From Escherichia coli (GTDB lineage: Bacteria; Pseudomonadota; Gammaproteobacteria; Enterobacterales; Enterobacteriaceae), in the NCBI RefSeq assembly GCF_044324785.1, contig NZ_CP172129.1: DNA of 64,000 nt, one strand, 5' to 3'. Below, one piece after another: positions 36,001 through 39,000 of this stretch. How positions within the stretch are numbered: position 1 is the stretch's first letter; the number at the start of each line of letters is the position of its first letter. A program made the position numbers.

Positions 36001-39000
36001 GCCATGATATCGATGCTAAAGCCAGTAAGGACTTTAAAGAGGCCAGCGATTACTTTACCAGTCGCAAAGTCAGTGAATCCGGCAGCCATACTGACAATAA
36101 TGCCGATTCCCGCGTGGACCAGTTGTCTGCAGCCCTGAACTCAGCGAAACAGAGTTACGACCAGTACACGACGAATATGACCCGCAGCCATGAATATGCT
36201 GAAATGGCATCCCGTACTGAAAGCATGAGTGGGCAGATGAGCGAAGATTTGTCGCAACAGTTTGCACTGTATGTGATGAAACACGCACCGCAGGATGCCG
36301 AAGCTATTCTGACAAACACCAGTTCACCGGAGATTGCAGAACGCCGTCGGGCGATGGCATGGTCTTTTGTTCAGGAACAGGTGCAGCCTGGTGTTGATAA
36401 TGCCTGGCGTGAATCCCGTGGGGATATTGGTAAAGGAATGGAGAGCGTACCTTCGGGTGGTGGCAGCCAGGATATTATTGCTGACCATCAGGGGCATCAG
36501 GCCATTATTGATCAAAGAACGCAGGACAGTAATATCCGTAATGATGTAAAACATCAGGTTGATAATATGGTCACAGAATATAAAGGGAATATCGGAGATA
36601 CTCAGAATAGTATTCATGGCGAAGAAAATATTGTAGACAGACAATATTCAGAGTTAAAAAATAATCACAAACAGGAAGAAATTCAACAAAACAACAGATA
36701 TAATGAAGAAAATAAACGACAGAAATTAATGCCAACACCGTCTGAAGATGCATTAAAACAGATGGTGGATGATAAGAAAGAACGATTGAAGGGGCCATTA
36801 TGATCACTCACTATGATATAAAAATGGAGATGCAAAAACTAAAGGAGGTACTCTCTGTAGAGGGTGTTAATATCCCATCATTATTACAAGTCATAAAGCC
36901 GGGAACTTATGTGTTTTTATGGGTTTTATTATGGCCAACTTTTCTGCGTTTAGTATCGGTTAAAAGTGATGTCAGGGATGTTGGCTTTGATATATGTGCT
37001 AGTGGAATGATGGGGTTCCTGCTTTTTGTGGCTATTACAAATGGAATGATGTTATACCTTGCGATTCCTGATAGTTTCAGAAAGGATTCAAAAATAATAA
37101 ATTTTATGTATTCTAAGAGTAAGACATATATTTTGTTGTTTTTGATTGTTTTTTCTATGGTTTCGTTTATGCATTCTATCTTATATGTTTTTGCACTAAT
37201 GATTACATTCATATTATTTTTCTTGGTGTATACCATAGATATAAATCGTTATAATCTCTCAGCTATAGCCTCAGTAATAGGACTGTTCAAAAAAGAGTCT
37301 GTTAGGGAAGGTGCGAACAAGTTCCTGATATGAGATCATCATATTCATCCGGAGCGCATCCCAGAGGGACATCATGAGCCATCAACTCACCTTCGCCGAT
37401 AGTGAATTCAGCACTAAGCGCCGTCAGACCCGAAAAGAGATTTTCCTCTCCCGCATGGAGCAGATTCTGCCATGGCAGAATATGACCGCTGTCATCGAGC
37501 CGTTTTATCCCAAGGCGGGCAATGGCCGACGGCCCTATCCGCTGGAGACCATGCTGCGTATTCACTGCATGCAGCATTGGTACAACCTGAGCGACGGTGC
37601 CATGGAAGATGCCCTGTACGAAATCGCCTCCATGCGCCTGTTTGCCCGATTATCCCTGGATAGCGCCCTGCCGGATCGCACCACCATCATGAATTTCCGC
37701 CACCTGCTCGAGCAGCATCAACTGGCCCGTCAATTGTTCAAGACCATCAATCGCTGGCTGGCCGAAGCAGGCGTCATGATGACCCAAGGCACTTTGGTGG
37801 ATGCCACCATCATTGAGGCACCCAGCTCTACCAAGAACAAAGAGCAGCAACGCGATCCGGAGATGCATCAGACCAAGAAAGGCAATCAGTGGCACTTTGG
37901 CATGAAGGCCCACATTGGTGTCGATGCCAAGAGTGGCCTGACCCACAGCCTAGTCACCACCGCGGCCAACGAGCATGACCTCAATCAGCTGGGTAATCTG
38001 CTTCATGGTGAGGAGCAATTTGTCTCAGCCGATGCCGGCTACCAAGGAGCGCCACAGCGCGAGGAGCTGGCCGAGGTGGATGTGGACTGGCTGATCGCCG
38101 AGCGTCCCGGCAAGGTAAAAACCTTGAAGCAGCATCCGCGCAAGAACAAAACGGCCATCAACATCGAATACATGAAAGCCAGCATCCGTGCCAGGGTGGA
38201 GCACCCGTTTCGCATCATCAAGCGGCAGTTCGGCTTCGTGAAAGCCAGATACAAGGGGCTGCTGAAAAACGATAACCAACTGGCGATGTTATTCACCCTG
38301 GCCAACCTGTTTCGGGTGGACCAAATGATACGTCAGGGGAGAGATCTCAGTAAAAACCGGAAATAACGCCAGAAATGGTGGAAAAAATAGCCTAAATAGG
38401 CTGATTCGATGTGTTTGCGGGAAAAAAATCGGCCCAGATCCGCGAAATTTTAATCAGCGAGTCTGCTTGGGAAGAAATGACCTGCTTATTCGCACCTTCC
38501 TTAGTTAAAAGGATATTTTGGATGAAAACAAAAAAATTGATGATGGTTGCACTGGTCAGTTCCACTCTGGCCCTTTCAGGGTGTGGTGCGATGAGCACAG
38601 CAATCAAGAAGCGTAACCTTGAGGTGAAGACTCAGATGAGTGAGACCATCTGGCTTGAACCCGCCAGCGAACGCACGGTATTTCTGCAGATCAAAAACAC
38701 GTCTGATAAAGACATGAGTGGGCTGCAGGGCAAAATTGCTGATGCTGTGAAAGCAAAAGGATATCAGGTGGTGACTTCTCCGGATAAAGCCTACTACTGG
38801 ATTCAGGCGAATGTGCTGAAGGCCGATAAGATGGATCTGCGGGAGTCTCAGGGATGGCTGAACCGTGGTTATGAGGGCGCAGCAGTTGGTGCAGCGTTAG
38901 GTGCCGGTATCACCGGATATAATTCCAGTTCTGCCGGTGCCACACTCGGTGTGGGCCTTGCTGCCGGTCTGGTGGGTATGGCTGCAGATGCGATGGTGGA

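Follow-up and report, generated by a model that had tools for sequence, protein, structure and literature searches.

An apparently recent ISKpn26 insertion at the end of traS in an Escherichia coli IncF plasmid

What becomes of the transfer genes traT and traD when an insertion sequence (IS) comes to lie directly upstream of them in an IncF transfer operon? The question is posed by a 64,000-nucleotide stretch of Escherichia coli DNA from contig NZ_CP172129.1 (this whole stretch is called the window below), in which a 1195-bp insertion sequence occupies positions 37306-38500, at the junction of traS and traT. A first reading made from the sequence, without database searches, had described a simple recent insertion of an IS5-like element that separates traT and traD from the upstream transfer promoter. 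We consider it highly probable that the event is a recent, simple transposition of ISKpn26 into the last traS codon of an otherwise unaltered IncF plasmid, and among its possible consequences for expression a mild polar effect is the one that we favour.

The insertion and its empty sites

The element is bounded by 16-bp terminal inverted repeats that agree at 15 of their 16 positions, it is flanked on both sides by TTAG, and the insertion site precedes the traT ATG (38522) by 17 nt. It is the only copy of the element in the 64-kb window. In a standard DDE transposition, the transposase made a 4-bp staggered cut, the repair of which yielded the TTAG target-site duplication (TSD). The length, the 16-bp repeats and the duplication given by the sequence-only reading are all borne out by the sequence at 37302-38504.

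The same site is found unoccupied in many related plasmids. A 2461-bp query laid across it matches dozens of IncF plasmids of E. coli, Salmonella and Klebsiella in two pieces that together span 1262 bp (2461 minus 1199), and a 25,000-bp query is matched over 23,801 bp (25,000 minus 1,199) at 100.0% identity, with at least 23 such plasmids listed. Because these relatives join the same flanks through a single TTAG, chance is ruled out as an explanation of the boundaries. When aligned with plasmid 134q (NZ_CP023363.1), window segments 12001-37305 and 38501-60019 meet end to end with an overlap of exactly 4 bp, the TTAG itself, and over the ~48 kb concerned (window 12001-60019) the differences amount to the IS, its TSD and one single-nucleotide polymorphism (SNP). 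This SNP, at 22941, affects the third base of traC codon 8, which is C in the window and A in 134q. Comparison with plasmids lacking the insertion, which had been put forward as a check on the first reading, thus returned a difference of exactly 1199 bp (1195 + 4).

The occupied junction was sought with a 400-bp probe across its left side, and no record with at least 80% coverage was found among 72,556 PLSDB plasmids or 5,426 complete E. coli genomes. Because the junction is absent from these public records and the flanks are identical to those of many plasmids, the insertion appears to be recent and, in public data, private to the source isolate. The earlier description of it as simple and recent agrees with the intact TSD and with the empty-site relatives, whose flanks are 100% identical. 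Plasmid pRHB34-C04_3 (CP057180.1) was considered as a second carrier of the same insertion on the strength of 98% query coverage, and was rejected: its IS lies ~470 bp further upstream in traS and has no TSD, it has lost the upstream tra genes, and its TTAG site is unoccupied.

The placement of the element between traS and traT holds for the junction region as a whole, but the insertion is within the last sense codon of traS and not in the intergenic spacer. The target TTAG straddles codons V168 and S169, taking two bases from the end of the former and two from the start of the latter. TraS residues 1-168 remain native, and residues 169-177 now read REGANKFLI, coded by the duplicated AG and the left end of the IS. 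The reconstructed native protein has 169 amino acids (aa), ends in ...KKESVS* and equals WP_000628099.1, as annotated in plasmid 134q. Replacement of the last codon and the REGANKFLI ending had been recognized correctly from the outset, but the net gain is eight residues (S169 to R, plus eight) and not nine. The chimeric product is still a member of the TraS family according to NCBIfam model NF010304 (255.6 bits against a cut-off of 173), with residues 1-168 aligned to model positions 1-169 of 171, and the change in the tail falls after the family-conserved part.

The composition of traS sets it apart from the surrounding genes. Its GC content is 32%, compared with 51-53% for traG, traT and traD, and it contains 15.8 YTAR sites per kb compared with 2-4 in these neighbours, about 4-8 times as many. 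Being AT-rich and dense in YTAR sites, traS is therefore a good target for IS5-family elements. Other plasmids carry such elements in this interval, with IS5 and a TTAG duplication in the traS region of pCE2050_A, ISKpn26 and a CTAA duplication between traG and traT in pF4321-KPC, and an ISKpn26/IS5 hybrid beside a tra deletion in pRHB34-C04_3. Among plasmids of the very same backbone there are copies of IS3 and IS1203 and a further insertion of ~0.8 kb (CP056915.1), in or next to traS.

The hybrid in CP057180.1 (6003-7197) has a mosaic appearance, the first ~1040 bp being ISKpn26-like and the last ~150 bp heavily diverged. We tentatively read these right-end ~150 bp as IS5-like; the copy has no TSD and borders on a deletion that has removed most tra genes. 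Three other IS5-family copies were found in the traG-traT interval, every one of them pointing in the direction of traT. An orientation bias reflecting selection for read-through was considered on these grounds and is not counted here. A query with the IS reversed returned no copy in the opposite orientation, in a search that links matching segments only when they share a strand, responds poorly to diverged backbones and bears on a sample of 3-4.

A one-base-deletion variant of ISKpn26

The element is best identified as ISKpn26 (IS5 family, IS5 group) and not as IS5 proper, a name that rests on RefSeq annotation. Over its full length it has 99.7% nucleotide identity to 1196-bp copies that RefSeq annotates as 'IS5-like element ISKpn26 family', compared with 91.4% identity to an IS5 copy. 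An element is usually regarded as an isoform of a named one at 95% nucleotide identity or more, and the window element lies above this value relative to the ISKpn26-annotated copies. RefSeq/PGAP annotation places ISKpn26 in thousands of plasmids from enterobacteria. The window copy shares with it the inverted repeats and the 4-bp YTAR duplication, but is 1195 rather than 1196 bp long and has an altered transposase end. With IS5 of E. coli K-12 (ins5A) it has in common the length of 1195 bp, the 16-bp inverted repeats (GGAAGGTGCGAA...) and the YTAR targets, but the divergence between the two is concentrated in the ~150 bp of 3' non-coding sequence.

The transposase matches NCBIfam NF033581 with 367.1 bits (cut-off 140), over the full model (1-285) and residues 24-313, and it contains the Pfam domains PF01609 (DDE_Tnp_1; 123 bits, residues 138-312) and PF05598 (DUF772; 75 bits). 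An IS5-family DDE transposase, bounding inverted repeats and a 4-bp YTAR duplication are all present. The earlier designation 'IS5-like' is consistent with the NF033581, DDE_Tnp_1 and DUF772 matches and can be refined to ISKpn26. The transposase product is identical to RefSeq WP_000019443.1, as annotated on identical copies of the element.

The element had also been called intact, which is correct for its boundaries and its TSD, but not for its transposase gene, in which a 1-bp deletion shifts the frame and rewrites the last five codons. As a result the C-terminus changes from ...IRQWERSQ* (326 aa) to GRDLSKNRK* (330 aa), giving a new nine-residue end. The change begins at residue 322 and lies outside both the DDE domain (138-312) and the family model (24-313). 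Apart from the deletion there are two SNPs relative to a standard ISKpn26 copy, at 38009 and 38464, and transposase residues 1-321 are unchanged.

Copies of 1195 bp that are 100% identical to the window element are present in NZ_CP043034.1, NZ_OX211907.1 and NZ_OP950835.1, of which one is IncX1 and two are IncHI2 plasmids; their three sites all differ and have TSDs of CTAA, CTAA and TTAG. Because identical copies occupy distinct sites and every copy is flanked by a 4-bp duplication proper to it, the deletion variant is mobile, the site described here being the fourth; its movement could be supported by its own 330-aa transposase or by the wild-type enzyme in trans. A 100-bp probe over the deletion is matched at 100% in 17 PLSDB plasmids, all 17 of them from E. 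coli, and in at least 30 complete E. coli genome records, mostly chromosomes (SMS-3-5, for example). This distribution suggests that the deletion variant is a sub-lineage resident in E. coli, the element being otherwise most common in Klebsiella.

Proposed transcription across the element towards traT and traD

The genes beyond the element are unaltered in sequence, and this holds for traD and all other tra genes. The traT Shine-Dalgarno (SD) sequence and ATG are the same as in the empty-site plasmids, and TraT is a full-length member of NCBIfam NF010291 (545 bits, positions 1-243 of 243). The features of the region are listed in Table 1.

Table 1. Features at and around the ISKpn26 insertion, in window coordinates
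Feature	Position	Strand	Remarks
traS, now a chimeric open reading frame (ORF)	36800-37333	+	177 aa; stop TGA inside the IS at 37331-37333
Candidate sigma-70 promoter TTTGCA-16-TATTAT	37190-37217	+	3' part of traS; 9/12 consensus match only
TTAG target-site duplication, left copy	37302-37305		YTAR-type site
Left terminal inverted repeat (IRL), GGAAGGTGCGAACAAG	37306-37321	+	16 bp
Transposase gene	37374-38366	+	330 aa; same direction as traS and traT
1-bp (T) deletion relative to 1196-bp ISKpn26	38336-38337	+	From alignment and translations
Right terminal inverted repeat, CTTATTCGCACCTTCC	38485-38500	+	16 bp; IRR is the reverse complement
TTAG target-site duplication, right copy	38501-38504		Perfect 4-bp repeat
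traT Shine-Dalgarno sequence AAGGA	38509-38513	+	Kept; 8 nt beyond the right end of the IS
traT	38522-39253	+	243 aa; Pfam PF05818; 100% identical to empty-site plasmids
traD	39506-41659	+	717 aa; ORF, with annotation in plasmid 134q, whose sequence is identical here; downstream gene that any polar effect would reach
Exact junction 33-mer, AAAAAAGAGTCTGTTAGGGAAGGTGCGAACAAG			

The IS, as judged by its transposase gene, is oriented as the tra operon is. We propose that a read-through fraction of the transcripts started upstream, at PY or at any promoter in traG or traS, would pass through the co-oriented element into traT and traD, that no promoter would face outward from the element towards traT, and that any polar reduction would be at most moderate and not a block. 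The plasmid would most likely stay conjugative and exclusion-proficient. A terminator scan of the + strand of the IS returned one weak 6-bp hairpin, at 37999-38017 inside the transposase ORF, and the 155 untranslated nt that lead from the transposase stop codon to traT fold no better than shuffled sequences (z = -0.9). A palindrome at 38389-38402 was considered as a terminator on the tra strand and was rejected, as its T-run lies on the opposite strand.

A similar arrangement has been analyzed for IS5 at fucAO, where transcription from the ins5A promoter crosses the whole element with a loss of ~15% (~85% read-through) (Zhou et al., PMC11894529). In that study a terminator placed after the ins5A promoter abolishes expression, and the other 90% of IS5 adds no promoter activity (PMC11894529). 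The window insertion resembles the one upstream of fucAO (Pfsn, PMC11894529) in that the IS is co-oriented with the genes that follow it and that downstream expression comes from transcription traversing the whole element, but differs in the source of the transcripts, which at fucAO is the ins5A promoter with a Crp site outside the IS and here is proposed to be the tra operon or promoters internal to traS. Because the IS is co-oriented and contains only a weak terminator-like hairpin, and in light of the IS5 data from fucAO, the absence of an outward promoter and a mild to moderate polarity are to be expected. The suggestion of the sequence-only reading that surface exclusion and coupling-protein expression may be changed is reasonable, but this analogy, the best at hand, points to a smaller effect than was implied. 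Functional data on IS5, including its IHF/bend activating region and the fucAO read-through, transfer to this element only by analogy because the two sequences diverge.

Several considerations weigh against so mild an outcome. The fucAO data are for IS5, and ISKpn26 differs from it above all beyond the transposase gene, in the final ~150 bp, where the right end of the CP057180.1 hybrid, read as IS5-like, shows many differences; this qualifies the analogy. Rho-dependent termination could be significant in the untranslated segment 37334-37373 and in the 155 nt that separate the transposase stop codon from traT. In the predicted fold of the read-through RNA the end of the IS together with the TSD (UCCUU, 38498-38502) pairs with the traT SD sequence in a hairpin of -4.1 kcal/mol, and the predicted paired probability of the SD is 0.88-0.99, compared with 0.19-0.83 in the native RNA. 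Such occlusion could lower TraT translation somewhat. The altered tail of TraS, in addition, may affect its stability or TraG recognition; according to reviews, TraS is poorly characterized and its chimeras are unstable (PMC7555446).

A more severe outcome, which we regard as unlikely, is a strongly polar insertion, in which traT would be cut off from its traS promoter and from PY, transcription would end within the element by Rho-dependent or hairpin termination, TraT and TraD would drop sharply and transfer would be impaired. The site is only 17 nt before the traT ATG, all upstream promoters have been moved 1199 bp away, the candidate promoter at 37190-37217 in traS among them, and the rest of IS5 has no promoter activity of its own (PMC11894529); IS5 in the same orientation nonetheless passes ~85% of transcription (PMC11894529). 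The hairpin at 37999-38017 is terminator-like and on the + strand, but no convincing intrinsic terminator is present on that strand of the IS. Likewise the prediction for the traT SD is greater occlusion than in the native RNA, but the SD and the start codon are both intact, and traD retains its own 250-bp upstream region unchanged. Strong polarity would have a bearing on the transfer that depends on TraD and on the exclusion and serum resistance that depend on TraT.

Where traT is normally transcribed from bears on this outcome. The sequence-only reading was right that 1199 bp now lie between the upstream promoter and traT and traD, but it omitted that any traT promoters inside traS are displaced as well, and this displacement is of greater consequence than how far away PY lies. 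The candidate at 37190-37217, if real, is now ~1.3 kb from traT, compared with ~0.1 kb natively; promoter-like sites in the region are no more frequent than in shuffled sequence, and this one is a lead and not evidence. The traT gene of F reportedly has promoter activity of its own, a finding that is attributed to Jalajakumari et al. 1987. Couturier et al. treated traS and traT as driven by PY.

If a mild polar effect with read-through is correct, tra transcripts would carry the transposase gene as well. It is possible, though we think it quite doubtful, that co-transcription of the transposase with the PY operon couples transposition to tra bursts controlled by TraJ and FinOP, while partial polarity and the occluded traT ribosome-binding site lower TraT and with it surface exclusion and serum resistance. 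ISKpn26 transposition would then be tied to such bursts, for instance those in newly formed transconjugants. As a separate observation, in read-through RNA coming from traS the left end of the IS, GGGAAGGUG, is predicted to pair with CACCUUCGCC, which corresponds to codons 6-8 of the transposase gene. The predicted fold encloses the transposase ribosome-binding site and might shield the gene from external read-through; this left-end fold (37305-37398) is no more stable than those of shuffled sequences (z = -0.96), and shielding is speculation.

The opposite effect, an activating insertion, is very unlikely. Here traT and traD would be raised through relief of H-NS-type silencing of the AT-rich traS, or through a promoter formed at the junction. 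IS5 activates neighbouring operons by several mechanisms, as at bgl, glpFK, flhDC and fucAO (PMC2753651, PMC5493358, PMC11894529), and traS, at 32% GC, is presumably of a type typically subject to silencing. IS5-like activation of the neighbouring genes is not indicated by the consensus scan, in which there is no promoter-like site at the right end or facing out of it. The fusion promoter at fucAO depends on a Crp site immediately before the left end of the IS, and none is evident here, no search for one having been made; the remaining IS5 sequence, moreover, was not stimulatory in the fucAO study (PMC11894529). A right-junction promoter, TTCGCA-17-GATATT (38489-38517), was also considered; it matches the consensus by eye at 8 of 12 positions, falls below the threshold of the scan and would start at or after the traT ATG, and was rejected.

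It is extremely improbable that the junction is an error of assembly, or that it was produced by two IS copies recombining and not by transposition: IS elements are often misassembled and this junction is unique among public records, but nothing specific points that way, and the TSD is perfect, the empty sites are shorter by exactly 1199 bp, the flanking sequences run collinear at 100% identity, only one IS copy exists in the 64 kb, and recombination between copies would leave no matching TSDs (compare pRHB34-C04_3, which has no TSD and has lost upstream tra genes).

Plasmid context and implications

The window comprises a leading region, a complete tra operon (traM to traX, and finO), a RepFII replicon and a mer transposon, on a common E. 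coli IncF backbone. In the leading region an IS110-family transposase ORF (PF01548 and PF02371) lies at 1326-2294 on the - strand, upstream of an ArdA-type antirestriction gene at 2516-3118. A repeat of ~0.55 kb is present in three copies that are 91-92% identical (3987-4526, 7210-7796 and about 12600-13188), spread among the antirestriction, ssb, parB-like and psiA/hok genes of this region. At the other end of the window, identity with 134q stops abruptly at 60019/60020, which is the outer end of an IS26 copy. Beyond this IS26, a gene for a ZnuA/SitA-like binding protein occupies 60108-61019 on the - strand, and an IS1 transposase is found at 61569-62069.

The element, its deletion variant and the type of event are all already catalogued. 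A known case for comparison is IS3 in finO of F (PMC9849209), which likewise is an IS inside an IncF tra region and may alter transfer-gene expression; there, in contrast, a regulator is inactivated with a proven phenotype, whereas here a single traS codon is changed. IS insertions in IncF tra regions are commonplace, and this one matters little beyond plasmid annotation. Given its absence from public plasmids and genomes, the junction is a good marker of the strain or plasmid lineage. Together with the many empty-site plasmids the window plasmid also forms a natural 'isogenic pair', which could be used to gauge the polarity of a co-oriented ISKpn26 on traT and traD.

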